DNA from: Candidatus Krumholzibacteriota bacterium
GTDB taxonomy: Bacteria; Krumholzibacteriota; Krumholzibacteriia; LZORAL124-64-63
Length of the DNA: 64,000 bases
Assembly (NCBI GenBank): GCA_022711765.1
Contig: JAKLEB010000002.1
Span: forward strand, 422,368 to 486,367
Direction of reading: 5' to 3'
The translations under genes and the position numbers were made by a program. Below are positions 14,226 to 53,454 of the stretch, piece after piece (positions within the stretch are counted from its first letter, which is position 1; the number at the start of each line of letters is the position of its first letter). Below the pieces are notes generated by a model. That model ran no database searches and was not told where the DNA came from. It was given only the letters and a program-made list of their open reading frames with translations.

Positions 14226-15212
14226 TCACCGCGCCGCCGGCACCGCCGCGCGGTCGGGCCGTGGCGTCGCCACCCCGCGCGCGAGATGGCGCGCGAGCGT
14301 GGCGGCGATCGGCAGGCCGGTCGCCATCTCCACGTAGAGGAACTGGCCCGCGGGGTTGATCTCCAGGAACACGTATTCGCCGCCGGGAGTGAGCCGCAGA
14401 TCGATGGCGCCGTACTCGAGGCCGAGCCGGCGCATGAGGGCGAGCAGCCGCGCCGAGACCGCCGGCGGCAATTCGTGCGCCCGGTACTCGATCTGCGAGT
14501 TGAACCGCACGTCCACCTTGTACTCGCCGGTCTGGGAGTGGGCCTCGGCGGCCAGGAGCTCCTCGCCGACGGCCGTGACCCGCAGGTCGACGACGGCCGG
14601 GATGTACTCCTGGAAGATGACAGGCGCGAGGCGGATCGCCTCGGCGTACGCCTCCTCTTCATCGCGCAGGATCCTGGTCTCGCGCCAGGCGTGGAAGTTC
14701 GCGAGGAACTGCTTGTAGACGACCTGGCCCGGGCGGTCGCGCCAAAAGGCGCGGGCCGCCTCCGGGTCGTTGGTCATGAGCGTCTCGGGAATGGCGAGCC
14801 CGACCTCCTTGGCGACCGCCAGCTGCCACGGCTTGTGGGCGGCCGCGGTGTCCGCGAAGATGTCGTTCACCCAGAGCGCGGCGCTGGTCTGCCACATCCC
14901 CTGGAACGCGGTGGCGGCTTCGCTCATCGCGAAGTGGCGCATCGCCGGATCCGACACCGCGGCAGGGATCCCGAATCCCTGGGGCCGGCGCCACCAGAAC
15001 GCCTTCACCTCGTCGAGCCCCACCCGCATCCCGTCGGGGAACGTCAGGGAGAGGTCGCGGGTACCGTTGCGGCCGAACCGCATGCCGAGGCTCATACGCA
15101 GGGGGAATTCGCCGAGGTCGAGGATCCGCACGCGGGTCTCGCCCAGGAGGGCCAGCTCCCGCATGACGGCCTGCGCGTGGATGTCCTCGGGGGCGGAGAT
15201 GATGAGGATCAT
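14226..15212 (-). CDS. RimK-like ATP-grasp peptide ligase, graspetide (MvdC/MvdD-like) macrocyclase
   Basis: FWWRRP, WVND...AAHKPWQL..AKEVGLAIPETLMTNDP, VVYKQF, APVIFQEYIP..DLRVTAVG, YGAIDL..TPGGEYVFLEINPAGQFL; directly downstream of a Thr/Lys/Asp/Glu repeat protein. Confidence 0.9.
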   Translation of the reverse strand: MILIISAPEDIHAQAVMRELALLGETRVRILDLGEFPLRMSLGMRFGRNGTRDLSLTFPDGMRVGLDEVKAFWWRRPQGFGIPAAVSDPAMRHFAMSEAATAFQGMWQTSAALWVNDIFADTAAAHKPWQLAVAKEVGLAIPETLMTNDPEAARAFWRDRPGQVVYKQFLANFHAWRETRILRDEEEAYAEAIRLAPVIFQEYIPAVVDLRVTAVGEELLAAEAHSQTGEYKVDVRFNSQIEYRAHELPPAVSARLLALMRRLGLEYGAIDLRLTPGGEYVFLEINPAGQFLYVEMATGLPIAATLARHLARGVATPRPDRAAVPAAR

Positions 15213-15264
15213 GACGGCCTTTCCGGTGAAGCGGGGGGCGCCTCCGCCGAGGCGCCCCGCTCGA

Positions 15265-16152
15265 TCAGAACATCATGCCGGGGAGGTTCCACTGAGGCGG
15301 TTGATAGCCGCCCCCGGGCTGCTCGACGAGCGTGCCGCCGCCGACCTCGACCCAGGTGATCGGGTCCTGGATCGGGTCCTTGGTGAGTTCCTTGATGGTG
15401 GGCTGCTGGTCGAAGTAAGGGAACGTGCGGATGTCGACCAGCGGTGTCGTGTGCGGCTGGTCGAAGAAGTGGACCGTCTGCGGCTGATCCAGCGTCGGGA
15501 TCGTGGCGACCATGTCGAGCGCCACGGCTGTCGCGGCCTGGGCCTGGGCCTGCGCCTGGAACTGCGGCAGGCCGGCGGCCGCCGCTTGCCGCGCGATCAC
15601 CTCCGGCGGCGCGTGATGCGGCGTGGCCATCACGAACGGGATCGTGCCAAACTGACCCGGATCGATGGGATCGCCGAGTTGCTTGCCGGGGCCGATCACC
15701 TCCTGGATCGTGATCGGATCCTGGATCGGGTCCTTCGTCAATTCCTTGACCGTGTCGAAGGGCTGCTCCTTGATCGTGTCCCAGGGCTGTTCCTTGATCG
15801 TGTCGATGATCGGATCCTTGGGCTGTTCCTTGATTGTGTCGATCGGCGCTTCCTTGATGGTGTCGATCGGCCCCTTGGCGATGAGATCGCGAATCCGCGC
15901 CGGATCCAGCTTGAGCTCGAGGATCTTCTGCGTCCCGGTCTCCTGGACGATGCGGTACGACTCGACCGCGGCGACCGGCAGCTCGATGGTCTGGCCGCCG
16001 GTCATCAGGATGAACTGGTCGTTCTTGGACGATCTCATGACGGCGCCGACCATGGTCACCGGGCCCGTGACCTCGCGCGCCTCGGGCGCCTGGCGCAGGT
16101 AGTCGGCGAACGGCTTGTCTCCGCGCCCCGCCGACGGGTTCTTCTCGGGCAT
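15265..16152 (-). CDS. Putative multicore graspetide precursor (295 aa)
   Basis: GAGGAG RBS + ATG 16152; DT[IV]KE x5, KELTKDPIQDPIT x2, PFVMATPHH, TxxxxD x4; 52 bp upstream of the ATP-grasp gene. Confidence 0.8.
   Translation of the reverse strand: MPEKNPSAGRGDKPFADYLRQAPEAREVTGPVTMVGAVMRSSKNDQFILMTGGQTIELPVAAVESYRIVQETGTQKILELKLDPARIRDLIAKGPIDTIKEAPIDTIKEQPKDPIIDTIKEQPWDTIKEQPFDTVKELTKDPIQDPITIQEVIGPGKQLGDPIDPGQFGTIPFVMATPHHAPPEVIARQAAAAGLPQFQAQAQAQAATAVALDMVATIPTLDQPQTVHFFDQPHTTPLVDIRTFPYFDQQPTIKELTKDPIQDPITWVEVGGGTLVEQPGGGYQPPQWNLPGMMF
15742..15870 (-). repeat. Coding tandem repeat, ~24-bp unit (xDTIKEQP) x5
   Basis: Repeated GGCTG[TC]TCCTTGA[TC]xGTGTC on + strand, in frame in the precursor. 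Confidence 0.9.
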
Positions 16153-16502: not shown

Positions 16503-18794
16503 TCAGGCCTCGCCGACCCGCTTGCGCAGCTCGTCCAGGTTCAGATCGATGGACGTGCGGGATCGCAACAGGTTCTCGAGGACCTCGTCCGGCGGGCGGC
16601 GGCTCGCCTCGCCCGGCGGCAGATCGCCCAGGCGGCGGTTCAGGCTCTCCCAGACGTCCCGAGGCAGCACGCTCTCGAGATACTCCAGGCTGGTCCCGCG
16701 CAGCACGACGTCGCTGGTGAGCAGGCCCTTGTAGGAGATCTGCAGCGGCTCGCGCGGCAGCACCAGCGAGAGCAGCGTGAAGACGTATTCGAGGCTGCGG
16801 CTGCTGCGCGCGCGAAGCGTCGCGTCGCCGGCGATGGTCGATTCCGCCGGCGGCGGGTCGTCGATGAGCCGCCGGTTCTCCCACAGGCCCTTCTCGACGC
16901 GCGCTTCCCGCAAGACCGCCGCGTAGACGGACCTGCCGTCGACGGCGAGGGACGGCTCGCGCTCGCGCAGGCTCGCGAGCGCGGCGGCCGCCCGGAAGCG
17001 GACCTCGAAACGCTGGTCGTCCAGAGCCGCCGTCAATCCGGCGCACGCGCGCGCCGTGGCACAGGTGGCGAGGATCCGGGGGATGCGCCGGCGGACGGCG
17101 AAATCCTCGGCGGGGTCGATCAGCCGGTCGATCAGCTGGCCGGTGATCGCCGGCGCCGCTCTCGCGAGCGCTCGCGACGCCCAGGCGGTGACGTCGTCCC
17201 ACGCGAGCAGCGTGGTAACCTGGCCGGCGATGACGGGGCTCACGACGGATAGCTGCCGCAAATGCGCGCGGACGCGGCGCGCGTCGCCCGAGCGCAGCTC
17301 GACCAGGGCCGCGACCTCGGGATCCACGGCCCGCGCGGACCTGTCCGGCGGCGGCGGGTGCAGGGCGGCGGTCTTCCGGTCGGCCTCGTCGACGTTCGCC
17401 GTCGCCGCAAGGACCGTCCGGCGGACGTCGCCCAGCTTGAGGTCGTCGAGGGTCATGGAGAGGTCGAGACCGCTGAACGTCTCCATCAGGCTCGGCATGG
17501 CGTGCGCCTCGCCGGGGTCGAGCTCGAGGACCTTGGCGCGGTTGATCAGGCTCGCCTCGAGCGCGCGGACGTAACCGGGGCGCAGCGCGCGCGTCACGAG
17601 AAACCCGAGGACCGAGATCGCGACCGCGAGCAGCAGGAGCACCTGGCCGGAGGCCGCCGCCGGCAACAGGATGACGGCGCGGACGAGCACGCCGCCGACG
17701 ATGTCGCCGACGCGGTCGGCGCCGACGTCGATGATCGTCCGGGTGGCGCGGCGATCGCCCGGAACGACCGGCGTGAAGAGGAGCTCGTAGCTGGACCGAT
17801 GCAGCGATCCCTGGACCACGGCCTCGAGGCCGCGCAGGAAGCCCAGGCTGGCGAGGCTCACGAAGGGCGCGACGATCAGCCCGCCCACCGACAGCAGGGC
17901 CGGCCGGACCGCCATGCCCGGCGCGATCCCGATCCGTTCGATGAGGCGGCGCGTGACGCCGGCCTGCACGGCGAGCGTGACGAGCGACACGACCGTGTAG
18001 AAGATCGCGAAGAACCGCACGAGCTCGGCGCTGGTCGCGTAGGTCTGCGTCGCCCGGGCCTTGAACAGGAAGTCCACGAGCGTCGCCGCCGCGTTGCCGA
18101 GCAGGACGACCAGGGCCAGGTTGCGCAGGTAGGGGACCCGGCGCAGCACCTGGAAGCCGGACTCGCTCGCCGGGGGCCGGTCGGCGCGGGCCGCCGGCCG
18201 GTCCGACCGCGGCCTGGCGGTCGCGTGATGCGAGGGCAGTTGCCGCAGGAGGGCCGCGCAGACCAGGTGGAAGCCGGCGATGATGGGCAGCACCCAGAGG
18301 ATGCCGAGCGACGCGCTGACCCGGTCGGCGATCATGCCGCCGAACAGTCCGCCCGCCGTGGCGCCGCCGGCGATCCGGCCGATGTTCCGCTTGGCGGTCC
18401 GCGGGTCGAAGCTCTCGTTGATGGTCGACCAGAATCCCGAGATGAGGATCGAGCTGATGACCGCGACGTGCAGGTAGACGACGACAGCCGCGATCCGGAT
18501 GGTCACCGTCGCCAGGAGCCACTCGCCGAGAAGGAGCAGCCCGCTCGCGATGAAGAACGGCGGGATGACGCGCGCCGGTCCGTACCGCGCGACCCACCGC
18601 GCCGCGACCAGCACGGCTCCGATGGAGAGCACCGCCGAGATGACCAGGACCAGCGGCAAGGTCGAGATCGGGTAGTTGGACAGGAACAGCGCGTCCCGCA
18701 CGGCCTTGCCGGCGATCTGGGTGGCGATCATGACCGCGGCGCACGCCGACGCCGTGACGACCGGTGGGGCGGCGGCTGACCGGCGCCCGCTCAT
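16503..18794 (-). CDS. TLC/Npt (ATP/ADP translocase-like) transporter fused to HEAT repeats
   Basis: ~12 TM segments with KAVRDALFL, FWSTINESFDPRTAKR, SSYELLFTP, IIDVGADRVGD; C-terminal helical repeats (LDDQRFEVRFRAAAAL); ATG overlaps kinase stop (ATGA). Confidence 0.75.
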   Translation of the reverse strand: MSGRRSAAAPPVVTASACAAVMIATQIAGKAVRDALFLSNYPISTLPLVLVISAVLSIGAVLVAARWVARYGPARVIPPFFIASGLLLLGEWLLATVTIRIAAVVVYLHVAVISSILISGFWSTINESFDPRTAKRNIGRIAGGATAGGLFGGMIADRVSASLGILWVLPIIAGFHLVCAALLRQLPSHHATARPRSDRPAARADRPPASESGFQVLRRVPYLRNLALVVLLGNAAATLVDFLFKARATQTYATSAELVRFFAIFYTVVSLVTLAVQAGVTRRLIERIGIAPGMAVRPALLSVGGLIVAPFVSLASLGFLRGLEAVVQGSLHRSSYELLFTPVVPGDRRATRTIIDVGADRVGDIVGGVLVRAVILLPAAASGQVLLLLAVAISVLGFLVTRALRPGYVRALEASLINRAKVLELDPGEAHAMPSLMETFSGLDLSMTLDDLKLGDVRRTVLAATANVDEADRKTAALHPPPPDRSARAVDPEVAALVELRSGDARRVRAHLRQLSVVSPVIAGQVTTLLAWDDVTAWASRALARAAPAITGQLIDRLIDPAEDFAVRRRIPRILATCATARACAGLTAALDDQRFEVRFRAAAALASLREREPSLAVDGRSVYAAVLREARVEKGLWENRRLIDDPPPAESTIAGDATLRARSSRSLEYVFTLLSLVLPREPLQISYKGLLTSDVVLRGTSLEYLESVLPRDVWESLNRRLGDLPPGEASRRPPDEVLENLLRSRTSIDLNLDELRKRVGEA

Positions 18795-20446
18795 GGGTCG
18801 AGCGCCGCGGATTCGACGGCCGCGAACGCGCCGTCCGCGGAACCGGCGTAGAGATGCGGCAGGTTGACCCGCCACCACTGCTCGGCGCGCTCTCGCGTCC
18901 ACGGCGGCAGCGTCGCCGCCACCTCGGCGAGCATCACGCTGAGTTCTTCGGCCGAACCCGGCCGGTCGTCCGGATCCTTGGCCAGGCAAGCCCGCACGAT
19001 CGCCTCCAGGCGCGGCGGGACCTCGATCTCGCTGCGCGCGCTCATGGCCGGCGGCGTCTCCTTCACGTGCTGCACGAGGACCGACACGGGGGTGCCCGAG
19101 AACACCATCTGACCGGTCAAGAGCCAGTAAGCGACACAGCCCAGTCCGTAGATGTCGGCGCGCGGGCCGGCCGCGTGGTCGCCGAGGATCGCCTCCGGCG
19201 CCATGAATCCGGGAGTGCCGCTGGTGAGTCCGGCGCCGCCGAACCGGGTGGTCGCGTCGGTCGATTCCCCGACGTTCCGGACGAGTCCGAAGTCGAGCAC
19301 CTTCAGGACGTCGAACTCGCGGCCCCGCCGGCAGGTGAACAGGTTCGCCGGCTTGACGTCGCGGTGGATCAGGCCCCGATGGTGGGCGTCGGCGAGGGAA
19401 TCGCAGGCGGCCCGCAGGAAGTGGATCGCCCGCTCCGCCGGCACGGGTCCGTTCTCCTGTACGAGCGTCTTGAGGTCGCGCCCCTCGAGGAGTTCCATGA
19501 CGTAGTAGAACACGCCGTCGTCGCCGGTGCCGAAGTCGTAGAGCACGATGGAATGCGGAGACGAGAGCATCGCCGTCGCCTGCGCCTCGCGCTCGAAGCG
19601 CCGCAGCCCCGTCGCCCCGCCGTCGTCGCCGTTGGCGCCGGCGCGATCGGGCCGGATCAGCTTGACGGCGGCGGGCCGCCGGAGCATCCGGTGCTTGGCC
19701 GTCCAGACCTCGCCCATCCCGCCCGCGCCGATCTTGCGGACGAGCTGATAGGCGCCCAGGCGCTGTGCCTTGGACACGCTCCGGGCGAGGTGGAACACGC
19801 GGGATGCGCACGCGTAGCCGATGCCGACGCAGATGAAGACGGTCGTGGCGAGCCGCGCCAGCGCGATGTACGGCGATCCCACGAACTCGGCCGGAGTGCC
19901 GTGGACGAGGACCGACAGGGTGGCCGTGGCCGGCAGCGTCGCCGCGGCGAGGAGCGACGCCACGAGGATCTGCCGGGGCGGCAGGGTCACCACGCTGGCG
20001 TACATGACGATCCACACGCCGAGCCAGCTGACGCCGAACTCGAACGCGTGGTTCGTGAACGTGCTTTCCCAGCGCCAGGACCGGGCCGCGATCCCGAGGG
20101 ATGACACGATCAGGAAGATCGTCGCCAGGCGGCAGTAAGCGAGGCTCGAGCAGCGGTCGCACCGGCACCGGAACGCGACGAAGGACGCGCACCCGATCGC
20201 GCCCAGCGCGATCACGGCGTCGAACGCCGGCGGGAGCTGGAACTCGCGGACCGCCGCCAGCGAGATGAGCCAGCTCGACAGGAACACGACGGCATAGCCC
20301 ACGGCGTAGGTCGTGGCGGCCGCGGCGAGGGCCCGCAGGGCGCTCGCCTGCGTCTCGCGGTCCAGTTCGACGAAGCGGGACGGGCCGCTGGTCTCGTTCG
20401 ACTCGGCCCTGGGTCGGATGGCGATCGGCACGACCACGCTGAGCAC
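18791..20446 (-). CDS. Membrane-anchored Hanks-type Ser/Thr protein kinase
   Basis: N-terminal TM helices; IGAGGMGEVW, AAVKLI, FEREA, HRDVKPANL, KVLDFGL, GTPGFMAPE, DIYGLG; start approximate. Confidence 0.92.
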   Translation of the reverse strand: MLSVVVPIAIRPRAESNETSGPSRFVELDRETQASALRALAAAATTYAVGYAVVFLSSWLISLAAVREFQLPPAFDAVIALGAIGCASFVAFRCRCDRCSSLAYCRLATIFLIVSSLGIAARSWRWESTFTNHAFEFGVSWLGVWIVMYASVVTLPPRQILVASLLAAATLPATATLSVLVHGTPAEFVGSPYIALARLATTVFICVGIGYACASRVFHLARSVSKAQRLGAYQLVRKIGAGGMGEVWTAKHRMLRRPAAVKLIRPDRAGANGDDGGATGLRRFEREAQATAMLSSPHSIVLYDFGTGDDGVFYYVMELLEGRDLKTLVQENGPVPAERAIHFLRAACDSLADAHHRGLIHRDVKPANLFTCRRGREFDVLKVLDFGLVRNVGESTDATTRFGGAGLTSGTPGFMAPEAILGDHAAGPRADIYGLGCVAYWLLTGQMVFSGTPVSVLVQHVKETPPAMSARSEIEVPPRLEAIVRACLAKDPDDRPGSAEELSVMLAEVAATLPPWTRERAEQWWRVNLPHLYAGSADGAFAAVESAALDP

Positions 20447-20675
20447 CCCATCGTTCCGTCGGCCGCGCCCGGGGCGGCGCGCCGGCGTTGGTCGCCAGGT
20501 TACGCAGGGAACGCGAATCGAGCAAACGGCTCACGGGTCCGGCGCCGTCGGCCGCGATGGCGGCGTCCGGTGGGCGAAGCTATCCTCGGCGGGCGCGGGA
20601 TCGCCGCGCGGCCGTTCGAGGTGACGTTGCGCTGTCGTCGAGGCCCGAACCTCGCCAACCCCGAGAGTCCGATCC

Positions 20676-23228
20676 ATGCTTCGCTTCCCGGTCGGTTGCC
20701 TGGCGTTCGCGGCCCTGTGCGGATCGGTGTCGCCGCCCGGCGCGCCCGGCCGGGAGCCGCTGCCCTCGCCGGCGGATTCGGTCGTGGTGCGGCCGATCGC
20801 GGATCGGTACGCCGCGGGCTGGCTGCACCGCGCGCTGTTCGGCAGCGACTATCGCGACCTCTGGACGGCGCCGATCGCGGTGCCGGTCCTCGACCTCGCG
20901 ACCTTCGGCGGCGGCGTCGTGCCCATCTCGCGCGGGGGCGGTCAGCAGACGACGTCCCTGCGACTGCGCGCGGCCGACGGCCAGGAGTACTACTTCCGTT
21001 CGATCGACAAGAATCCAGCCGCGGGCTTGCCGCCGGAGCTGGTCGACACCGTCGTCGCCTCGGTGGTCCAGGATCAGACGTGCGCGACGTTTCCAGCCGG
21101 AGCCCTGCTGGTGGCTCCCCTGCTCGCGGCGGCCGGCGTGCTGCATGGCGAGCCGCGCCTGTACGTCCTGCCGGACGACGAACGCCTCGGCGAGTTTCGC
21201 GACCTGGCCGGACTCGCCGGGATCCTCGAGCCGCGCATCGCGGACGGATGGGGCGGCGCGACCGAGGTCATCGGCGGCGACGAGCTGCTCCGCCGCCTGG
21301 CGGCGAGTCCCGACGACCGGGTCGACGCGCGGGCGTTCCTGAAGGCGCGCCTGCTGGACATCCTGGTCGGCGACTGGGACCGTCACCGCGACCAGTGGTC
21401 GTGGGCCCGGTTCGGGGACGAGCGCCCCCGTCGGTGGCTGCCGGTCCCGCGCGACCGCGACTTCGCCCTGGTCCACTACGAGGGGCTGGTGCTCGCGGCG
21501 GCGCGCATCCGCTTGCCCCAGCTGATCAGGTTCGAAGCCGAGTATCCGGACGTGCTGGGGCTGACCTGGAACGGCCGCGAGCTCGACCGCCGGCTCCTGG
21601 CCGGGGCGGACGCGGCGACCTGGAACGCCGTCGTGGCCGAGGTCCAGGCGGCGATCACCGACGAGGTCATCGCGGACGCCGTGCGCCGGCTGCCGCTGCC
21701 GTTCCAGGCGCTTCGCGGGGCCCGCCTGGCCGACGCGCTCGAGCGGCGGCGCGACGCTCTCGGCGCCGTGGCGCGGCAGTTCTACGCGATGCTGTCCGCC
21801 GAGGCCGAGATCCACGCGACCGACGTCGACGAGACCGCCGTCGTCACCGTGATCGACCGGCGGACCGTCGCCGTCCAGCTCTTCCGGGCCGGCGAACCTG
21901 GCGCGGCGCGCGGCATCCCGTACTTCGCACGGCGGTTCTCCCGCGACGACTCGCGGGAGGTCCGGCTCTTCCTGGGCGGCGGGCAGGATACCGTCCGGGT
22001 CGAAGGCCGGTCGCGACCGGACCTCGAGCTGCGGGTGATCGGCGGCGCCGGCGCGGACGTCGTGCTGGACCCGGGCGCGCTCGGCGGCCTGCGGATGTAC
22101 GACGAGGACCCGGGCACGGTCGTGACCGGCGGGGCGCCGCTGGACAGCCGGCCCTACTCGCCGCCGCCGAAACGCCACGCCAACGAGATCCCGCCCCGCG
22201 ACTGGGGCCACGCCTGGCAGCCGGCGGGTCTGCTCGCCGCGGGGCCGGACATCGGCGTCCTCTTCGGCGTCGGTCGGACCTACACGACGTACGGGTTCCG
22301 CAAGCACCCTTACGCGAGCGAGCAACGGCTCCGGCTCGGGTTCGCGACCGAGCCGGCGACCTTCCGGGCTGACTATCGCCTCCGGCTGCGGCGCGCCCAT
22401 TCGTCCCGGGTGACCCAGCTCGCGCTGCGGGCCTCCGGCTTCGAGGTCCTCCGCTTCCATGGCTTCGGGAACGAGGCGCCCGCGACCGGCGACGAGCGGT
22501 ACTACCGCGTCACCCACGAGCACTACGGGATGTGGTTGTCGGTCGTGGCGCCGCTCGGGCGTCTCGGCGAGATGACGGCCGGTCCGGTCGCCCGGTACCT
22601 GACGACCGACGATCGGCCCGACCGCTTCCTGGCGACGCTCGACCCCTACGGAGCGGGCCGGTTCGGGCAGATCGGCGCCCGGCTGGACGTCTCGCTGGGC
22701 GGCGCCGGCCGATCCGACGCCGCCTGGCCGAAATTGCGGGTCGACGTCGGGGGCAGCGTCTATCCACCGTGGTGGGACGTCTCGCGCAGCTACGGCGAGG
22801 TCCACGCCGAGGCCGCCGGAACGCTCCCCTTCACGGCGCCCCTCGATCCCGCATTGCGCCTGCGGGCCGGCGGCAAGATCCTCTGGGGTCCGTATCCCTT
22901 CTTCGACGCCGCGTTCATCGGCGACCAGGGCACCGTCCGCCTCGGCCGCCAGAACCGGTACGCGGGCGACGCGTCGAGCTACGGATCCGGCGAGCTGCGC
23001 CTCACGCTCGGCCGGGTGTTCCTGGGCGCGCCGTCGGACGTCGGGGTCTTCGGCCTGGTGGATACGGGACGCGTCTATCTCGAGGGCGAACGATCGCGAC
23101 GCTGGCACACCGCGACCGGCGGCGGCGTGTGGGTCGCGATCCTGGACCGCGCCAACACCATCAGCCTCGCCCTGGCCGGCAGCGAGGAGCGCACGGTCCT
23201 TTACTTCCAGGGCGGTTTCGGTTTCTGA
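20676..23228 (+). CDS. Outer-membrane Omp85/TamA-type barrel with N-terminal atypical kinase-like domain
   Basis: Signal-like N-terminus; SRGGGQQTTSLRL..YYFRSIDK, GDWDRHRDQW, PRDRDFAL; C-terminal strands RNRYAGD, VGVFGLVDTGRVY, LYFQGGFGF. Confidence 0.7.
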   Translation: MLRFPVGCLAFAALCGSVSPPGAPGREPLPSPADSVVVRPIADRYAAGWLHRALFGSDYRDLWTAPIAVPVLDLATFGGGVVPISRGGGQQTTSLRLRAADGQEYYFRSIDKNPAAGLPPELVDTVVASVVQDQTCATFPAGALLVAPLLAAAGVLHGEPRLYVLPDDERLGEFRDLAGLAGILEPRIADGWGGATEVIGGDELLRRLAASPDDRVDARAFLKARLLDILVGDWDRHRDQWSWARFGDERPRRWLPVPRDRDFALVHYEGLVLAAARIRLPQLIRFEAEYPDVLGLTWNGRELDRRLLAGADAATWNAVVAEVQAAITDEVIADAVRRLPLPFQALRGARLADALERRRDALGAVARQFYAMLSAEAEIHATDVDETAVVTVIDRRTVAVQLFRAGEPGAARGIPYFARRFSRDDSREVRLFLGGGQDTVRVEGRSRPDLELRVIGGAGADVVLDPGALGGLRMYDEDPGTVVTGGAPLDSRPYSPPPKRHANEIPPRDWGHAWQPAGLLAAGPDIGVLFGVGRTYTTYGFRKHPYASEQRLRLGFATEPATFRADYRLRLRRAHSSRVTQLALRASGFEVLRFHGFGNEAPATGDERYYRVTHEHYGMWLSVVAPLGRLGEMTAGPVARYLTTDDRPDRFLATLDPYGAGRFGQIGARLDVSLGGAGRSDAAWPKLRVDVGGSVYPPWWDVSRSYGEVHAEAAGTLPFTAPLDPALRLRAGGKILWGPYPFFDAAFIGDQGTVRLGRQNRYAGDASSYGSGELRLTLGRVFLGAPSDVGVFGLVDTGRVYLEGERSRRWHTATGGGVWVAILDRANTISLALAGSEERTVLYFQGGFGF

Positions 23229-23263
23229 TGGCATCCGGAGATCCCGCCCGGGCAGGAGTCGTC

Positions 23264-24118
23264 ATGTCGCGAACGCCGCAGCCGCGCCTGCTGGCCGCCG
23301 TCCTCGTCGCGGTCCTGGCCCTCGCCGACGCGCCGGGCGCGCGCGCCGATGGCCACCTCGAGGCCGGGGAGGTGGCTGCCCTGGCGGCCGCGCCGGCCGC
23401 GCTGCTCTGGCTCGGCTCGGCGATCCACGGGTCCCAGGCCGATCGGCCGCCCCGCTGGACCGAGCCTCCGGGCATCGATCGGTGGGCAGCCGTCCACCTG
23501 GCGCCAGCGCCGCGCGCGACGCCGGCGAACTTCATGGACTCGGACCTGGCCGGCGCGATCGACGTCGTCGCCATGGGCGCCGCGGTCGGCTGGCTGGACG
23601 CGACCTATCCGTGGGACGATCCCGGTCGCGACTTCCTGCAGGGTCAACTCGTGTACTGGTCGGGCTACGGCAGCATGGTGGGTGTGCAGGAGGGAGTGAA
23701 GTCCCTGGTCGGGCGCCAGCGGCCGCTGTGGCGCCAGGCGCCCGAGGTCGCCGCCCTTCGTCGCGACGTCTCGCCGAGCCACCACCGCCAGTCGTTCTGG
23801 TCGGGACACGCCGCGGGCGCGTTCTACGGGGCGACCTTCCTGAACCTCCGCCTGCGCGCGGTGATGCGCGGGGAGCTGTCGGCCGGACAGTGGAAGTCCT
23901 GGAACTGGGTGCCGCCGGCGGTGCTCTTCACGTGGGCGTCGTGGGTCGGCTACAGCCGGATCCACGCTCACCAGCATTACCTGACCGACGTGCTCGTTGG
24001 CGCGGGGGTCGGGGCGGCCGCCGCGGCGCTCTTCGCGTCCTTCGACGACGGACGCGAGGATTCCCGCAGGTCCAGCCCGCAGCCCGTGCCGCTCGTCACA
24101 TTCGCGCTTCCTTTCTGA
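23264..24118 (+). CDS. PAP2-family phosphatase with signal peptide
   Basis: KSLVGRQRP, SFWSGH, SRIHAHQHYLTDV (PAP2 motifs C1-C3); CAGGAG RBS; alternative start 23228. Confidence 0.85.
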   Translation: MSRTPQPRLLAAVLVAVLALADAPGARADGHLEAGEVAALAAAPAALLWLGSAIHGSQADRPPRWTEPPGIDRWAAVHLAPAPRATPANFMDSDLAGAIDVVAMGAAVGWLDATYPWDDPGRDFLQGQLVYWSGYGSMVGVQEGVKSLVGRQRPLWRQAPEVAALRRDVSPSHHRQSFWSGHAAGAFYGATFLNLRLRAVMRGELSAGQWKSWNWVPPAVLFTWASWVGYSRIHAHQHYLTDVLVGAGVGAAAAALFASFDDGREDSRRSSPQPVPLVTFALPF

Positions 24119-25505
24119 GATCGCCGGCGATCTCGACGGCCTCGACCCGCCGGGCGCGTCTCATGGCGTGGTGGCGGCGCCCGACCGCCACGGACAGCGC
24201 GAGCCAGACGGCGACGAACGCGGCGTTTACCACCGCGAACGCTTGGGTCGAGAGCCCGACGGCCGTCCCGCCCACGACGACGCCGGCCGATGCCACGTCG
24301 CCGGCGCGCACGAAGAAGGTGTCGACGGCCTGCTTCCCCTTGTACTTGATCTCCGCCGGCGTCGGCAGGAACAGCGCGTGGCGCACCGTGTTCTGCAGCG
24401 AGTAGTCGGTCGCGTTCTCGACGGCCTTCACCAGGCGGATCAGCAGCAGGGCGGGGGCGGCCGCGAGCACCGCGTAGCCGGCCAGCGCGAGGACCGGCAG
24501 CACGAGGATGGCGCCCCGGACGCCGAGCCAGCCGATGGCCCGCGAGACGACGAAGAACTGCAGCGCGGCGGCGAGCACGTTGACCAGGGTGAAGTAGTGG
24601 GCGTAGAACGAGCCGACGAAGGCGTTGAGCTCCGCCTCCGTGCCCGCCGGGACCGCGACCGCCGCCGCCTGGCGGACTGTCCGGCCGAGGATGTACTCGC
24701 CCGTGGAGTTCACGAGGTTCAACACCAGCAGCATCAGGCCGATCAGCAGCAGGTAGCGGCTGCGCAGGACGAGGGCGAAGCCGGAGCGCGCGCTCTCGTC
24801 GTGCAGAGGCCGCAGCCGTCGGTTCGCCGCGACCGCCGCGAGCCGCGCCCGCTCGCGCCGCTGCACGACCGCGGTGATCGCGACGCTGGCCAGCAAGGCC
24901 ACGGCCGCGATCAGCATCAGCTCGTGCACGCCGATCCCGGCATCGAGCAGCCAGCCCGCGAACCAGGCGCCGGCGATGGCCCCGACCGAGCTGCCGATCG
25001 CGATCAGGGCGAACAGCCGCTTGCCCTGCTCGGGGGTGTAGAGGTCGTTCGCGAAGGACCAGAGCTGGGAGATCACCATCAGGCTGAAGATCCCCACCCA
25101 GATGAAGAACGGGACGCCGAGGTACGGCACGTCGAGCCGCGCCAGCGCGTAGAAGAGCGCGATGTTGCCGACGAAGAAGAGCCCGATGCGGTTGATCAGG
25201 CGCACGCGGCCGACGCGATTCACGAGCGCGCTGTACGTCGGGACGATCAACAGCAGCAGGAGCGTCTGCACCGCCGACGCGTAGCTCTTCACCTCGGCGC
25301 CGCCGCTGACGAGGACGAGCGGCTCCCGCACGGTCTTCAGGAGGTAGTAGGACGTCAACAGCAGGAACAGGGCCGCCATGAGCAGGAGCACGGTGCCGCC
25401 CTCGCCCGGCTCCACGCGCGCGAACGGGCGCAGGACGAGCGCGAGGCGATCCGGTCTCGCCCGGCCGGCGCCCGGGTCCGGTCGCGTGCCCCTGTCGATC
25501 GTCAT
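24096..25505 (-). CDS. TLC/Npt family NTP/NDP exchange transporter
   Basis: SYYLLKTVREPL, WSFANDLYTPEQGKRLF, DYSLQNTVRHALFLP, KYKGKQAVDTFFVRAGD; ~12 TM. Confidence 0.85.
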   Translation of the reverse strand: MTIDRGTRPDPGAGRARPDRLALVLRPFARVEPGEGGTVLLLMAALFLLLTSYYLLKTVREPLVLVSGGAEVKSYASAVQTLLLLLIVPTYSALVNRVGRVRLINRIGLFFVGNIALFYALARLDVPYLGVPFFIWVGIFSLMVISQLWSFANDLYTPEQGKRLFALIAIGSSVGAIAGAWFAGWLLDAGIGVHELMLIAAVALLASVAITAVVQRRERARLAAVAANRRLRPLHDESARSGFALVLRSRYLLLIGLMLLVLNLVNSTGEYILGRTVRQAAAVAVPAGTEAELNAFVGSFYAHYFTLVNVLAAALQFFVVSRAIGWLGVRGAILVLPVLALAGYAVLAAAPALLLIRLVKAVENATDYSLQNTVRHALFLPTPAEIKYKGKQAVDTFFVRAGDVASAGVVVGGTAVGLSTQAFAVVNAAFVAVWLALSVAVGRRHHAMRRARRVEAVEIAGDLRKEARM

Positions 25506-25680: not shown

Positions 25681-26253
25681 ATGCGCATTTCGAGAACGGT
25701 GACTCTGCTGCTCGCCGCCGCCGCCGCCGCCGCCGCGACCGCCCAGGCTGCGCCGGACGGTGCGATCGGCGGGCGGATCGCGCTCAGCCGCCTCGTCCCG
25801 GACATCGTCATCCCCGCCGAATGGGGTGGCATCTGGGACGTCACCAGCACGACCTACGACTGCGAGACGAACGCCGTGACCGGTTCCGACGCCTACGCCG
25901 ACACGCTCTGCGCCGGCACCGTCCTCGATTTCGGCGACCCCGGCTTCGAGATCACCTGCACCGGCTCCGCCGACGGCAACACCATCACGTCCCATTGCAC
26001 GGGCTCGCTCGCGCTGAGCGACGACTGCACGATGAATTTCGACCTGCAGTCCACGACGACGCGCACCGGCGACACCTACGAGTCCGTCTCGACCATCAAC
26101 ACGACCTACGACGGCGCGGAGTGCGAATTCCTGCCCGATTCCTGCGACCGCGTGGAGACCACGGGCACGCGGACCGCGCCCGAGCCGGTCCCGTGCGGCA
26201 ACACGCCCGTCGAGACGGTCAGCTGGGGAACGGTCAAATCCCTGTACCGCTGA
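25681..26253 (+). CDS. Secreted Cys-rich protein with C-terminal TPVETVSWGTVKSLYR motif
   Basis: AGGAGG RBS, Ala-rich signal peptide, 8 Cys, Thr-rich beta content. Confidence 0.75.
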   Translation: MRISRTVTLLLAAAAAAAATAQAAPDGAIGGRIALSRLVPDIVIPAEWGGIWDVTSTTYDCETNAVTGSDAYADTLCAGTVLDFGDPGFEITCTGSADGNTITSHCTGSLALSDDCTMNFDLQSTTTRTGDTYESVSTINTTYDGAECEFLPDSCDRVETTGTRTAPEPVPCGNTPVETVSWGTVKSLYR

Positions 26254-26352: not shown

Positions 26353-28071
26353 TCACCGCACCAGCACCAGCTTCACCTGCCGGCTCGTCCCTCCGCCGCT
26401 CAGCCGCGCCAGGTACACCCCGCTCGGCATCTCGCGGCCGGCCTGATCGCGTCCGTCCCACGTCGCCGAGTGCCGGCCGATCGCGAGGACGCCCGACTGC
26501 AGCCGCCGCACGCAGCGCCCCCGCACGTCCAGGACCTCGAGGTCGACCGCGAGCGGGCGCGCCACCGAGAACGCGAGCCGCGTCAGGGGGTTGAACGGAT
26601 TCGGCCACGCCGGAGCCAGGGCGATGGGCGCCGCGGCGACCGGGCCGGCCGGCGCCGCCGTGACGTCCAGGTACTGGACCGCGGCCAGCGCGTCGAGGAT
26701 TCCCCAGCCGTAGTCGTTGTCCGGCGCGCCCGCGTGGTCGGCCGTGCTGCGCAGGGCCTCGCGCAGCCGGAAGGGGCTGGTTCCGGGATGGGCGCACAGC
26801 ACGAGCGCGCCGACGCCCGCGGCGAGCGGGCACGAGAAGCTGGTGCCCGACGCGTTCCCGTACTCGCTGAGCGACCCCGGCAACACGACGTGGTTGTTCA
26901 CGCCCAGGGCGCTGACGTCCGGCTTGATGCGGCCATCGGCCGTCGGGCCCGGCGAGCTGAAGTAGGCGATGTTACCCGAGAGGTCGACCGCGCCGACGGC
27001 GATCACGCTGTCCCCGTCGGCCGGCGCGGCGATCGTGCCGGTCGACTGGCGGTAGTTGCCGGCGCTGTTGAACACGGCGACGCCGAGAGCCGCGGCCTGG
27101 TCGGCGGCGATGGTGGTCGTGCAGGTGTTGCCGTCGAAGTCCGCGAACGTGTACCAGTCGTCGTACGCGAGGCTCGAGCTCACGAGGTCGCAGCCGTTGG
27201 CCTCGAGCCATTCGAGGCCCTCGACCCAGAAGTCCTCCTCCGCGGGCACCTCCTGGCCGATGTCCTCGGTCTTGGCGAGGTAGAAGGCCGCGGCGTAGGC
27301 GGGCCCGATGAGCGAGCCGGGCGCGTAGCCGCCGATCGTCGAGAGCGTCATCGTGCCGTGGTTGTCCTGGCCGCTGGGGTCGCCCGGCTCGTCGACCACG
27401 ACCGGGTCGTCGTTGACGAAATCCCAGGCGCCCCGCAGATCGAGGCTGGCGAAGGCCAGGTGGCTGGTGTCGAACCCCGAATCGAGCATGCCGATCACCA
27501 CGCCCTCGCCGTGGAACCCCAGGTCGTGGACGGGCGGGACGTTGACCTGCGCGAGCTCCGGCAGGCTCTCGCCGTACTCGAGGCGATCGGCACGGGGGCT
27601 CGCGGGCGCCGCGGGCTCGAGGACCGGGAGCGGCTCGCGCGGCGCGGCGCCCCTGACCGGCTCGAGCCGCGCGACGAACGGAAGGGCGGCCACGCGCGCC
27701 AGCTCGTCGGCGCCGAGGATCACGCTCGCCGCCGCGAGCCAGCGGCTCTCGGCGCGGATCTCGAGGCCGAGCGCGCGCAGCCCGGCGAGGTAGTCCGGGT
27801 CGTTCGGCAGGTCGATCGCGGTGACGAGCGGCAGGTCGCCCCGCGCACGCGCGCGACGCTCGAGCGACCGTTCGCTCAGCCGCTCGCCCGCAGCGACGAG
27901 GGCGGCGGGATCGCGCTCGAGGTCGCCCTTGTCGGCGAAGAAGACCCAGACCGGCCGCGGCCCCGATTCGAGAAGGGCCGGCAGTTCCTCCGCCACGTTG
28001 GCCGCGCGGGTCGCCGCGGCCGCCAGGCCGACCAGGGAGACCAGACCCAGCGCGCCGAAGATCCTCTGCAT
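26353..28071 (-). CDS. Secreted S8 (subtilisin-like) peptidase with FlgD-Ig/T9SS-like C-terminal domain
   Basis: Triad motifs MLDSGF, DNHGTMT, GTSFSCP; AWPNPFNP..WDGRDQAGREMPSGVYLARL. Confidence 0.9.
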   Translation of the reverse strand: MQRIFGALGLVSLVGLAAAATRAANVAEELPALLESGPRPVWVFFADKGDLERDPAALVAAGERLSERSLERRARARGDLPLVTAIDLPNDPDYLAGLRALGLEIRAESRWLAAASVILGADELARVAALPFVARLEPVRGAAPREPLPVLEPAAPASPRADRLEYGESLPELAQVNVPPVHDLGFHGEGVVIGMLDSGFDTSHLAFASLDLRGAWDFVNDDPVVVDEPGDPSGQDNHGTMTLSTIGGYAPGSLIGPAYAAAFYLAKTEDIGQEVPAEEDFWVEGLEWLEANGCDLVSSSLAYDDWYTFADFDGNTCTTTIAADQAAALGVAVFNSAGNYRQSTGTIAAPADGDSVIAVGAVDLSGNIAYFSSPGPTADGRIKPDVSALGVNNHVVLPGSLSEYGNASGTSFSCPLAAGVGALVLCAHPGTSPFRLREALRSTADHAGAPDNDYGWGILDALAAVQYLDVTAAPAGPVAAAPIALAPAWPNPFNPLTRLAFSVARPLAVDLEVLDVRGRCVRRLQSGVLAIGRHSATWDGRDQAGREMPSGVYLARLSGGGTSRQVKLVLVR

Positions 28072-28129
28072 GACATCCTCGTTTCGTTCGCCGGCCGGCC
28101 CCGCCGCCGTCGCTCCCGACGGTCCCGGG

Positions 28130-29686
28130 TCACCGCACCAGGCTCACCTTCCGCGTGATCTCGACCCTGCCGGCCCGCAGGCGCAGCAGGTACGTTCCGG
28201 CGGGCGCCGCCCGCCCCGCCGCGTCCCGGCCGTCCCAGACCGCAGGCTGCGGACCGCCGTCGCGCCATCCGCTCACGAGCCGCGCGACGAGCCGGCCCGC
28301 GAGGTCGTACACGCCGAGGTCGACCGGGCCGGCGCGCGCCAGCGAGAAGCTCACCGCGCACCCCGGACTGGCCGGATTCGGCGCGGGGTCGCCGAGCGCC
28401 GTCACGCCCGCAAGCGGCACCGCCGTCGGGGCCTCGACCAGGGGCCAGCTCGCGAACCCGCTCACGGGCCACGACACCTCCTGCTCCGCCTCGTTCACGA
28501 ACCGGAACCGCGATCCCCACTGGCCGACCTCGAGGACGACGAGGCTCACGGTGTAAGGGCGGCCCACGGTGAGGTCGCCCTCGCCCGCGGCGAGCGCGTG
28601 CACGGTCTCGCGGCCGCCGGGGTCGCGCAGCACGAGGGTGGCCGTGACCGGCGCGTCCGCCTCGGCGTCGCTGTAGGTCACGGTCCAGGCGACCGTGCCG
28701 CCGGGGCTCGCCACGGCGGGCTCGCAGCCGGCGGCGTCGAGCTGCGGTCGCAGGTTGAGCTCGCGGGGCTGCCAGGTGTCCGAGCCGAAGCCGGTCCCGC
28801 TGTCGTAGGCGATCCAGAAGTAACCGAAGAGGCCGAAACGCTCGCCCCAGCTGTTCTTGGCGAGCCAGGCCTGGCGCGCGTCGTCGTAGCCCACGATCGC
28901 GACCGAGTGGCCGCCGTCGGGCGGGCTCACGCCGTCCCAGACGTAGATGCCCTCGGCGTAGGCGTAGAAATCCGTGTAGACCTGGAAGTTCGTGACCAGC
29001 GGGCCGTCCTGCAGCGCCAGGTTGATCGCGTCCGGGTCGATCGCGCCGGCCGTGACCTGCGCGTAGTCGCCGAGGTAGACGAGCCGGCCCAGGACGTCGG
29101 GGCAGGCGGCGTCGCAGGGCACCGCGTGGTCGGCCTGGTAGGGGAAGCAGGCCTCGTCGCAGATCCCGTCGGTCGTGAGGAACGCGAGCGCGCGGTCGCA
29201 CCACCCGCCGAAGCAGCTGCCGGCCGTGATGCAGGAGAGGACCCACTGCTCGGAGAGGTCGAGGTCGTCCTGGCCAGGCTCGCCGCTCGTGATCATCAAC
29301 CACGATTCCATCGCCGCGACGGCCGAGAAGTCCCAGCACGAGCCGCAATCCTCCTGGTTGCGGATCGGCGTGACCCAGTCGCCGCCCAGGTCCCGCCAGT
29401 CCAGGAGCACGGGGAGGTCGCGCGCGAGGCCGCTTCGCTCGGGACCGCGCCAGCCGACGGGCGCGGGCGAGCCGTTGCGGCGGCTGCGCTCGCCGGGAGG
29501 GAGGCGGAAGATGGGGTTGTCGCCGGCCTGCCAGGGCAGATCGAGACGCTCGATGTTCGCCTGGATGCGGGCGAGCTCGGCGGCCTGCGCCGGGGTGAGC
29601 GGCGGGGCGGCGGCGGGCGCCGCAGCCGAAACCGCCAGGCAGGCGGCCAGCAGCAGGACGTGGCGGTCGATCGCGGTCAGACGCAT
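28130..29686 (-). CDS. Secreted C1A (papain-like) cysteine peptidase with FlgD-Ig C-terminal domain
   Basis: NQEDCGSCWDFS, GHSVAIVGYD, WLAKNSWG; PAPNPASP..WDGRDAAGRAAPAGTYLLRL. Confidence 0.9.
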   Translation of the reverse strand: MRLTAIDRHVLLLAACLAVSAAAPAAAPPLTPAQAAELARIQANIERLDLPWQAGDNPIFRLPPGERSRRNGSPAPVGWRGPERSGLARDLPVLLDWRDLGGDWVTPIRNQEDCGSCWDFSAVAAMESWLMITSGEPGQDDLDLSEQWVLSCITAGSCFGGWCDRALAFLTTDGICDEACFPYQADHAVPCDAACPDVLGRLVYLGDYAQVTAGAIDPDAINLALQDGPLVTNFQVYTDFYAYAEGIYVWDGVSPPDGGHSVAIVGYDDARQAWLAKNSWGERFGLFGYFWIAYDSGTGFGSDTWQPRELNLRPQLDAAGCEPAVASPGGTVAWTVTYSDAEADAPVTATLVLRDPGGRETVHALAAGEGDLTVGRPYTVSLVVLEVGQWGSRFRFVNEAEQEVSWPVSGFASWPLVEAPTAVPLAGVTALGDPAPNPASPGCAVSFSLARAGPVDLGVYDLAGRLVARLVSGWRDGGPQPAVWDGRDAAGRAAPAGTYLLRLRAGRVEITRKVSLVR

Positions 29687-29853
29687 CCAGCGACAACTCC
29701 CGGCGTCGAGTGGGAATTCGATGATACCACGAATCGGCGCGGGGATACTACCTCGGCCGCGGTCCGGTATGGTATCGTCGGCCAGGCGATCTGACACAGA
29801 CAGCACTCCGGAGGCCGACGAGAGACGGAGAGCGAGCCCAGGGAGGAATCGGG

Positions 29854-41435: not shown

Positions 41436-41507
41436 CCGGCGGCGAATCCCGGCGGCCCTTCCCGGGTACCTCGCGCGTTCGCCCCCGCAACACCGGAGGT
41501 TCTCGCC

Positions 41508-42191: not shown

Positions 42192-42284
42192 CGCTGGCGC
42201 CGCCGCGCCGCCGCCGTATCTTGATCCCCACCACGACCGGCGACCGCCGCGCCCTTGCGGCGGTCGCTTCGCCGAGAGGGACCG

Positions 42285-53309: not shown

Positions 53310-53343
53310 CGGGGGTGCTCCGGGGCTGGGACGCTTGGCGAGG

Positions 53344-53372
53344 ATGGTACAGCCGCCGGCCGCGATTGCCAA
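53344..53372 (-). promoter_or_regulatory. Sigma70-type promoter of the patatin gene; a divergent TATAAT at 53400-53405 may serve the S8 gene
   Basis: Minus strand TTGGCA-17 bp-TACCAT. Confidence 0.55.
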
Positions 53373-53454
53373 GGGCAGCCGCGCCCGCCCGTTCTTTAGT
53401 ATAATGATCCATCGAGGGGGGTGGACGATGTCCCCGTCGCCGGAGACCCTGGCC

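Follow-up and report, generated by a model that had tools for sequence, protein, structure and literature searches.

A predicted kinase-barrel protein of the outer membrane, its genetic linkage to two TLC-family carriers, and a possible role in phosphoryl transfer outside the cytoplasm

Five contiguous genes at positions 16503-25505 of a 64,000-nucleotide stretch of DNA from a Candidatus Krumholzibacteriota bacterium (contig JAKLEB010000002.1; the whole stretch is referred to here as the window) encode two carriers of the TLC/NTT family, a Hanks-type kinase, a PAP2 phosphatase, and an 850-residue protein that appears to join an exported kinase-fold domain to an Omp85-type outer-membrane barrel. 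Comparison with related loci shows an evolutionary linkage of the gene for the last of these, the kinase-barrel gene, to both carriers and to the Hanks kinase; most relatives add a link to an exported phosphatase. The reading frames were picked from a third-position GC plot and agree, as does the contiguity of the genes, with independent gene calls on identical public contigs; the five-gene layout claimed in an earlier note on this DNA (the original prediction) is thus borne out. The genes are as follows.

16503..18794, minus strand: TLC-HEAT gene, 763 residues; inner-membrane carrier of the TLC/NTT family whose C-terminal tail is an alpha-solenoid (HEAT-like)
18791..20446, minus strand: Hanks-type Ser/Thr kinase gene, 551 residues
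20447..20675: divergent intergenic region between the two operons, 229 bp, taken from the gene coordinates
20676..23228, plus strand: kinase-barrel gene, encoding the 850-residue protein
23264..24118, plus strand: PAP2 phosphatase gene, 284 residues, membrane protein
24096..25505, minus strand: TLC2 gene, 469 residues; stand-alone TLC/NTT-family carrier

The Hanks kinase and TLC-HEAT genes, in that order, diverge from the kinase-barrel and PAP2 genes, and the second pair converges on TLC2. The stop of the Hanks kinase gene overlaps the start of the TLC-HEAT gene in the sequence ATGA, and the two genes are, to judge from the sequence, translationally coupled. The PAP2 gene begins 35 nucleotides 3′ of the kinase-barrel gene on the same strand, and overlaps the convergent TLC2 gene by 23 nucleotides. 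A scan of the 229-bp divergent region found no sigma-70-like promoter and no terminator match, and Rfam and tRNA scans of the window returned no element. The window has a G+C content of about 72% and carries ordinary housekeeping genes (LeuRS, DnaB, SelB, RadA), while the contig bearing the locus exceeds 1.3 Mb in public sludge and digester assemblies. This does not look like a reduced intracellular genome, and the setting would differ in that respect from that of the TLC/NTT carriers of intracellular organisms.

The kinase-barrel protein was modelled with AlphaFold from homologue alignments. The predicted local distance difference test score (pLDDT) of the full-length model is 79.7. Because the barrel dominated a full-length Foldseek search, the N-terminal domain was modelled separately; the model of residues 34-505 has a pLDDT of 85.5 and a predicted template-modelling score of 0.87. 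From N- to C-terminus the models comprise a signal peptide, a kinase-like domain of two lobes that is prolonged by a long helical extension, a linker rich in beta structure, and a barrel of 16 strands, which divide the gene (plus strand throughout) in the following way.

20676..20774, plus strand: signal peptide and low-confidence N-terminus, residues 1-33; hydrophobic, pLDDT below 50, homologue consensus ending in A-x-A-Q
20775..21800, plus strand: predicted exported HipA/CtkA-like kinase-fold domain with helical extension, residues 34-375, from AlphaFold and Foldseek
20934-20954, plus strand: P-loop GGGQQT of the kinase-fold domain
21369-21398, plus strand: putative catalytic loop GDWDRHRDQW, residues 232-241
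21453-21461, plus strand: DRD motif (D260-R-D262)
21801..22190, plus strand: beta-rich linker, residues 376-505, with GGxGxD-like repeats; short strands only by DSSP of the models
22191..23228, plus strand: predicted 16-strand Omp85-type outer-membrane beta-barrel, residues 506-850, C-terminus GFGF, from Foldseek and NCBIfam

The barrel resembles those of BamA, TamA and Sam50 (Foldseek E values of 8e-10 to 5e-8). The NCBIfam model Omp85_fam matches residues 748-850 only (E 7.6e-7); the protein itself has no Pfam match, and PF01103 is recorded for many homologues. For the N-terminal domain the best structural match is CtkA of H. pylori (3akl; E 2.2e-6, TM score 0.52 on the target), and further matches are to HipA (4pu5), CotH (5jd9), HipT (8ezs) and Fam20C (5yh0). 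On these models the protein is best described as a HipA/CtkA-type kinase-fold domain that would be exported and carried on an Omp85 outer-membrane barrel. The original prediction had called it an atypical kinase-Omp85 protein, a description that structure prediction upholds and that profile libraries do not: the residues before the barrel have no match in Pfam or NCBIfam and no PDB sequence match, whether searched as a single sequence or as a profile, and the N-terminal domains of 16 family members have no Pfam match at E values up to 10, HipA_C included. In the linker, DSSP of both models finds no beta-alpha-alpha-beta-beta unit such as would mark a POTRA domain. The linker may instead be a beta-roll, and one homologue gives a weak RTX-repeat match in Pfam (E 0.76).

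The resemblance to HipA, HipT and CtkA, which share a PI3/4-kinase-like fold, extends to short motifs. These include a P-loop of the form ISxxGxQxxTxL (VAGAQEKT in HipA) with an ATP-anchoring basic residue, a putative catalytic loop of the form [LIV]-G-x-x-D-x-H-x-x-[N/Q]-[FW]-S, and, some 25 residues further on, an Asp that would bind metal. When the protein is set beside E. coli HipA, whose sequence was read from NC_000913, the P-loop region is ISRGGGQQTTSL as compared with ISVAGAQEKTAL; the catalytic loop is ISVAGAQEKTALL as compared with LIGATDGHAKNFSV, against which the stretch LVGDWDRHRDQWSW is also set. Residues D235-R-H-R-D-Q240 have the spacing of the D-x-H-x-x-N of HipA, but with Gln for Asn. 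Where HipA has a single metal-binding Asp, the kinase-barrel protein has D260-R-D262, which lies 25-27 residues past the catalytic Asp; the corresponding distance in HipA, from D309 to D332, is 23. The protein is also unlike the HipA group in its signal peptide and its fusion to Omp85, and in having no antitoxin partner, no Pfam HipA_C match and no hhalign similarity. Among 81 sequences drawn from all clades, G232-D-W-D-R-H, Q240, D260-R-D262, G88, R108, K112 and D133-Q134 show 99-100% conservation, with D235-R-H-R-D-Q240 and D260-R-D262 at 100%; G89, Q91 and T92 of the P-loop are nearly invariant. Such a pattern would suit a catalytically active phosphotransferase better than a scaffold. A profile search with the N-terminal domain shows how large the family is, with 3,706 clusters (50% identity), the top 150 of which are mostly around 850 residues in length. 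Homologues come almost entirely from metagenome-assembled genomes of Gemmatimonadales.

Evidence that these genes belong together comes from 80 genome loci encoding kinase-barrel homologues, which were searched with the window proteins by tblastn. TLC2 adjoins the kinase-barrel gene in 33 loci and TLC-HEAT does so in about 30 of the 80; the Hanks kinase, TLC2 and TLC-HEAT occur together in 22 of the 80, and in 13 of the 37 loci that have at least 5 kb on both sides. The original prediction expected Npt-type carriers to be enriched beside kinase-Omp85 genes, and this is what is found. Within 4 kb of the kinase-barrel gene the density of TLC2 is 6.4 per 100 kb, as against 0.2 at 4-10 kb, and that of TLC-HEAT is 5.8 as against 0.4; carrier genes are thus 15-30 times denser close to the kinase-barrel gene than somewhat further away. 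For Hanks kinases the corresponding figures are 6.0 and 2.0 per 100 kb. In a neighbour-joining tree the linked loci are spread over at least three clades, and in the window's own clade nearly every member has the module where its flanks allow a view. At least five gene orders occur: K-T-M-X-H, K-D-T-X-H, T-X-K-H, M-X-K-T, and the inverted H<K< X>P> T< of the window (K, Hanks kinase; T, TLC2; H, TLC-HEAT; X, kinase-barrel; M, metallophosphoesterase; D, HtrA protease; P, PAP2). Linkage that is kept through rearrangement is a classical sign of functional coupling. What these neighbourhoods have in common is envelope chemistry involving phosphoryl groups, nucleotides or polyphosphate.

An HtrA/DegP-type protease with PDZ domains is encoded in some of these operons, either between the Hanks kinase and TLC2 or directly before the kinase-barrel gene (L011, 7111-8538, plus strand; also L015, L027, L050, L069 and L082).

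Viewed from the carrier, the association takes a second form. In 80 metagenome loci encoding TLC2 homologues, the fused kinase-barrel gene adjoins TLC2 in only 5, and the proposition that TLC2 always lies beside the fused gene was rejected; the picture was revised once a split form was counted. Many of the other TLC2 loci encode a small Omp85 barrel of about 420 residues (PF01103) together with a separate exported protein of about 550 residues. The latter has no Pfam match, and a PDB profile search found nothing for it; it carries a signal peptide or lipobox, and a Gly-rich loop followed by IKFD, HxDxKxxN and HYLIDFG. The spacings from Asp to Asn/Gln (5) and from Asp to Asp (25) are common to this protein and the N-terminal domain of the kinase-barrel protein. 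By hhalign, the family gives weak local matches to the window's Hanks kinase, on HRDVKPAN...DFG (E 0.089), and to the kinase-barrel N-terminal domain, on a helical TD..I..AV..RRD segment (E 0.075). The small barrel and its exported neighbour are read here as a probable split version of the fused protein. When both forms are counted, an exported kinase-like protein is encoded at 9 of the 13 TLC2 loci whose flanks reach at least 5 kb on each side. One operon (L099) comprises genes for a TonB-dependent-type barrel, TLC2, TLC-HEAT, a cyclic-nucleotide-binding (cNMP-binding) protein, the small Omp85 barrel and the exported kinase-like protein; at another locus (L034), fused and split forms both surround a single carrier pair. 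Pairs of TLC2 and TLC-HEAT are also seen in the company of no detected kinase-barrel.

A further arrangement is found at L159 (11562-13985, plus strand), where a 476-residue exported Cys-rich protein with the motifs QQDRVGN and NDND is encoded downstream of a TLC2 homologue and is followed by a Metallophos gene (E 7e-17). This protein is a candidate for a further, third kind of secreted kinase, one resembling Fam20.

Both carriers match the Pfam TLC model (PF03219; gathering cut-off 21), TLC2 with 50.1 bits (E 2.5e-13) and TLC-HEAT with 34.9 bits (E 1e-8); TLC-HEAT also matches MFS_1 (E 1.1e-8) and, weakly, the solved NTT structure 9j3n. The HEAT_2 match on the tail of TLC-HEAT is weak and below cut-off (20.9 bits, E 4.3e-4), and the same model is strong in TLC-HEAT relatives that adjoin TLC2 homologues (L099, E 8e-14; L126, E 7.6e-18). 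To our knowledge, every characterised member of the TLC family carries a nucleotide or a nucleotide-like cofactor. For a residue check, 26 TLC2 and 28 TLC-HEAT sequences were aligned with the parts of AtNTT1 and Chlamydia Npt1 returned by the PDB search; the AtNTT1 numbering offset was fixed by checking three positions, and K155 falls outside the aligned part. The KxKGKxAxD motif is kept in both families, and E385 is kept as Glu or Asp, which links the two carriers to Chlamydia Npt1, Rickettsia Tlc1 and plastid NTT1. Fusions of NTT carriers with HEAT repeats make up a widespread clade that has been described but not characterised, and a gene for a cyclic-nucleotide-binding protein often follows them (Major et al. 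2017, PMC5381601). TLC-HEAT matches this clade in architecture, having a C-terminal HEAT-like tail and a neighbouring regulator gene. The regulator varies: it is a cNMP-binding protein in L099 and L066, and a Hanks kinase in the window, which thus departs from that clade both in its membrane-bound regulator and in its partners, the kinase-barrel protein and the phosphatases.

The Hanks kinase matches the Pkinase model (E 1.3e-41, residues 233-500), and its translation shows AAVK, HRDVKPAN, DFG and APE. Its N-terminal 225 or so residues are hydrophobic, with about six segments counted by eye, without a predictor. If these are membrane segments, the catalytic domain would be placed in the cytoplasm. 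In the clades closest to the window the Hanks kinase gene is tandemly duplicated, in two or three copies, upstream of TLC2 (L004, L005, L011, L035, L058, L165).

The PAP2 protein of the window has a Pfam E value of 1.6e-16 and all three motifs: KX6RP (KSLVGRQRP), SGH and SRX5HX3D (SRIHAHQHYLTD); the regular-expression match spans 23699-23989. Like PgpB, LpxE/LpxF and LpxT, the protein has these motifs, several hydrophobic segments, and an active site expected on the periplasmic face. Unlike them, it belongs to a setting in which it is not conserved with its neighbours and is apparently interchangeable with a metallophosphoesterase lipoprotein of relatives. A tblastn search combined with the motif expression found PAP2 beside the kinase-barrel gene in none of the 80 genome loci except L079; over these and the 80 TLC2 loci it was found only in the window and L079, and PAP2 was rejected as a conserved member of the module. 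In L079, from a distant lineage of lower G+C, an independent PAP2 gene (E 3.7e-21) lies 30 nucleotides downstream of the kinase-barrel gene.

The gene most often found beside the kinase-barrel gene encodes a 379-residue metallophosphoesterase; it is present in 42 of the 80 loci, as a rule on the same strand and shortly upstream. The protein combines a lipoprotein-type signal with the motifs of purple acid phosphatases (GDxG / GDxxY / GNHD / H / GHxH), and its gene adjoins the kinase-barrel gene in carrier-free clades as well. One database protein of 1335 residues (P0203), which may be a gene-calling merge, unites three domains in a single chain: Metallophos at 69-266, kinase-like at 481-926 and Omp85 barrel at 1084-1297. 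An HD-domain gene follows the kinase-barrel gene in L061 and L074. The original prediction, which cast PAP2 as the eraser, is supported in so far as a phosphatase partner is a recurrent theme, evident in the metallophosphoesterase, in P0203 and in two independent occurrences of PAP2; PAP2 itself is not conserved. The pairing of a kinase-barrel with an exported phosphohydrolase would then be the conserved theme, and the PAP2 protein of the window a lineage-specific substitute, probably an accessory one.

The reading that best accommodates these observations, to which we give a probability of roughly 0.4, is that of an extracytoplasmic phosphoryl-transfer module composed of the kinase-barrel protein, an exported phosphatase, and two TLC carriers that tie them to the cytoplasmic nucleotide pool. 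TLC2 and TLC-HEAT would move nucleotide between cytoplasm and periplasm, passing a nucleoside triphosphate (NTP) outward and returning the spent di- or monophosphate. Electrogenic exchange of nucleotides across an inside-negative membrane makes the outward direction physically reasonable; it is the inside-negative potential that favours the direction of the mitochondrial ADP/ATP carrier. The exported NTP would serve as phosphoryl donor for the N-terminal domain of the kinase-barrel protein, in a place where none is normally available, and the domain might face either the periplasm or the cell surface. Its substrate could be an envelope protein, a lipid, a glycan or polyphosphate. The cytoplasmic Hanks kinase may gate the flux through the HEAT-tailed carrier, as the cNMP-binding protein may do in other lineages, and the phosphatase, PAP2 in the window and the purple-acid-phosphatase-like lipoprotein elsewhere, would reverse the modification or recycle the phosphate. 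The original prediction is upheld in its observation of five such genes, and its proposal of extracytoplasmic phosphorylation finds partial support.

The nearest analogy to such a module is phosphorylation in the eukaryotic secretory pathway, where the kinase FAM20C depends on ATP supplied by a membrane exchanger and where acid phosphatases act extracellularly. The likeness is one of concept: a kinase in a compartment that does not synthesize ATP, served by a nucleotide exchanger in the membrane and opposed by an eraser of the purple-acid type, with Fam20C and CotH among the structural matches to the N-terminal domain. The bacterial module, known from sequence alone, differs in that its carrier family is unrelated and its kinase would be anchored to an outer-membrane barrel.

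Several observations weigh against this interpretation, some of which concern the carriers. Both fall far short of the cut-off of the NCBIfam model TIGR00769 (387.2), with 44.7 bits for TLC2 and 29.8 bits for TLC-HEAT, and TLC2 is only weakly similar to solved NTTs (9j3n, E 1.4e-4; 9j3j, E 0.011). In AtNTT1, K155, E245, E385 and K527 are the four charged residues essential for ATP/ADP exchange; the E245K mutation blocks exchange, and K527E abolishes the binding of ATP while that of ADP is kept (PMC3306366). The position of E245 is occupied by Gly or Ala in TLC2 (Gly in the window protein) and by Thr, Ser, Ala or Gly in TLC-HEAT, and that of K527 by Asp in 25 of 26 TLC2 and all 28 TLC-HEAT sequences (53/54). 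Given the effect of K527E, this replacement suggests that ATP is perhaps not the cargo. The proposal that both proteins are of the Npt/TLC type holds, but their designation as ATP/ADP antiporters is not supported: they appear to be TLC-family members that lack the classical antiporter signature. Candidate cargoes are ADP or AMP, some other nucleotide, or a complex of nucleotide and metal.

The kinase assignment and the linkage have weak points of their own. No sequence-profile method (Pfam, hhalign, PDB searches) places the N-terminal domain in any kinase family, and its profile aligned with E. coli HipA by hhalign gives a probability of 0.05%, that is, no similarity; the relation to HipA is accordingly drawn from fold and motifs only. 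For the split form, with hhalign E values of 0.075-0.089, kinase status is likewise a matter of motifs. Roughly half of the kinase-barrel homologues lack a carrier gene at distances up to 10 kb, and many paralogues are carrier-free; seen from the other side, no kinase-like neighbour was detected at 4 of the 13 well-flanked TLC2 loci. The closest relatives, at 71% and 66% identity, have no PAP2 gene beside them. Finally, a CYTH-PPK1 gene directly adjoins the kinase-barrel gene in L031, L037, L046, L052 and L065 and lies nearby in L071 and L081, and DUF4956 membrane proteins are encoded near kinase-barrel paralogues in 12 loci. Such neighbours point to polyphosphate rather than to ATP.

The PPK1 proteins encoded beside kinase-barrel paralogues are unusually long, at 1119-1140 residues (L065, 2973-6395; L081, 12373-15732), and the copy in L081 has an N-terminal CYTH domain. 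In one clade a CYTH-PPK1 of 1,100 residues is the direct neighbour of the kinase-barrel; the HtrA-type protease inside the operon belongs to another clade.

Among the rival explanations, inward scavenging of nucleotides or organophosphates fares best, and we regard it as unlikely. The Omp85 barrel would admit or capture the compounds, the kinase fold would act as a nucleotide receptor, the phosphatases would free phosphate, and the TLC carriers would import in the manner of the class II NTTs of intracellular bacteria. Import is what characterised TLC carriers do, and the replacement of K527 by Asp, which speaks against classical ATP/ADP exchange, counts in favour of this reading. The exported phosphatases are the most conserved neighbours, a TonB-dependent-type barrel stands at the head of the L099 operon, and periplasmic PAP2 enzymes that hydrolyse nucleotides are known, such as the Shigella apyrase PhoN2 (PMC5613738). 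A receptor, however, needs no catalytic Asp, metal-binding DRD or P-loop, all of which are conserved across the 81 sequences, and a nucleotide importer would lose its cargo to periplasmic dephosphorylation. It is also unusual for simple nutrient uptake to involve a cytoplasmic Hanks kinase or cNMP regulator, and a HEAT tail. Moreover, we know of no Omp85 barrel that serves as a solute channel.

It is still less probable that the locus encodes type V-like secretion of a kinase effector. In this scheme the barrel moves its own N-terminal domain to the surface in the fused form, or secretes a separate protein in the split form; the kinase acts on neighbouring or prey cells with their ATP, and the phosphatase and carriers serve self-protection or regulation. 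As in type Vd proteins such as PlpD, an enzyme at the N-terminus precedes a 16-strand barrel of the Omp85 type. The kinase-like enzyme is found either fused to such a barrel or as an exported protein of its own next to a stand-alone one, which parallels the relation of type Vd to type Vb, the two-partner TpsA/TpsB systems. Weak ShlB/FhaC (TpsB) Pfam matches on homologue barrels point the same way, as do the best structural matches, CtkA being a secreted effector kinase and HipA and HipT toxins. Repeats of the GGxGxD-like kind found in the linker typically fold extracellularly, and the HtrA-type protease of some operons could free a passenger. The models nevertheless show no POTRA domain between enzyme and barrel, the enzyme has a kinase fold in place of a lipase or adhesin, and its surface exposure is only putative. 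There is no small immunity-like gene, and the large family is mostly present in one or a few copies in free-living bacteria of soil and sludge. The tight and ancient linkage to two nucleotide carriers of the inner membrane and a phosphatase, which has no counterpart in type V systems, is left unexplained.

An envelope polyphosphate or lipid-phosphate system is equally improbable. The kinase fold and the phosphoesterase would here act on polyphosphate, or on the head group of a phospholipid or lipid A, with phosphoryl groups supplied through PPK1 and DUF4956 instead of free ATP, and the TLC carriers would balance ADP and phosphate. The CYTH-PPK1 and DUF4956 neighbours described above are the natural basis for such a scheme, but they are confined to some clades and absent from the window, and a literature search found no link between DUF4956 and polyphosphate. 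Also in its favour, the endopolyphosphatases of yeast belong to the metallophosphoesterases, lipid phosphates are the typical substrates of membrane PAP2 enzymes (PgpB, LpxE/F/T), and the first Gemmatimonas to be brought into culture was obtained as an organism that accumulates polyphosphate. On the other hand, we know of no kinase of the HipA/CtkA fold that uses polyphosphate.

That five unrelated genes merely have "phosphate" annotations in common is very improbable, for although PAP2 is not conserved and Hanks kinases are numerous in the relatives' genomes (the background of 2.0 per 100 kb), the local enrichment of carriers, its recurrence in several clades and gene orders, the fusion protein and the reverse association contradict chance for four of the five genes and leave it realistic only for PAP2.

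If the interpretation as a phosphoryl-transfer module is correct, phosphorylation would take place in a compartment supposedly devoid of ATP. The periplasm is held in textbooks to be ATP-free, an assumption around which thinking on the Gram-negative envelope is organised; it is the usual explanation of the fact that the energy for outer-membrane assembly, lipoprotein sorting and lipopolysaccharide transport is drawn from the inner membrane. The module makes a regulated supply of nucleotide to the envelope a directly testable question. It would provide a first functional context for NTT-HEAT fusions, which are widespread and occur also in Chlamydia, cyanobacteria and oomycetes, for the TLC homologues of free-living bacteria, and for the at least 3,700 kinase-barrel clusters whose enzymatic half has no Pfam domain. 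The wider proposal, that some free-living diderms maintain a dedicated extracytoplasmic nucleotide economy with NTP export by regulated TLC carriers, an Omp85-tethered or secreted HipA-like kinase, and phosphatases as erasers, is more doubtful. Under it, envelope components would be phosphorylated reversibly, with ATP as the driver. Even if export of ATP proves wrong, the kinase-barrel protein and its phosphatase would be a new kind of outer-membrane enzyme. A literature search that extended to periplasmic kinases and ATP supply found neither a kinase-Omp85 fusion nor its phosphatase partner described, and no functional context for NTT-HEAT or free-living TLC carriers; all the parts come from known superfamilies, and the system as a whole has no characterised bacterial counterpart in the literature searched.

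Other features of the window deserve mention. Just past the TLC2 gene lies a gene for a 190-residue exported Cys-rich protein (25681-26253, plus strand) with no family match; it is conserved on identical contigs, and tblastn at E 1e-5 found no copy in 160 related loci. On the other side of the five genes, at 14226-16152 (minus strand), an MvdD-type ATP-grasp ligase of 328 residues (PF21068) is encoded directly downstream of a 295-residue protein whose DTIKE(Q)P / KDPIQDPIT repeats correspond to 24-nucleotide tandem DNA units, and which has no Pfam or NCBIfam match. The pair has the appearance of a cluster for a graspetide (omega-ester peptide) whose precursor is multi-core.

Large secreted peptidases (S8, C1, and a 1318-residue subtilase with a P-domain) are encoded at 26353-29806 (minus strand) and 53254-57210 (plus strand). 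All terminate in a FlgD_ig-like domain, which is possibly a common sorting or anchoring tag. The clearest dip in G+C of the window (0.61, as against about 0.72) coincides with a gene for a 393-residue exported protein with beta-helix-like repeats (43770-44951, plus strand); no tRNA or Rfam element was found around it, and the gene may have been recently acquired. At 41436-43424 (plus strand) a GPP34/GOLPH3-family protein (PF05719, E 7.5e-48) is followed 33 nucleotides later by a 399-residue barrel of the Omp85 superfamily (PF01103, E 6e-10), which is of the same small stand-alone type as accompanies TLC2 in other organisms.

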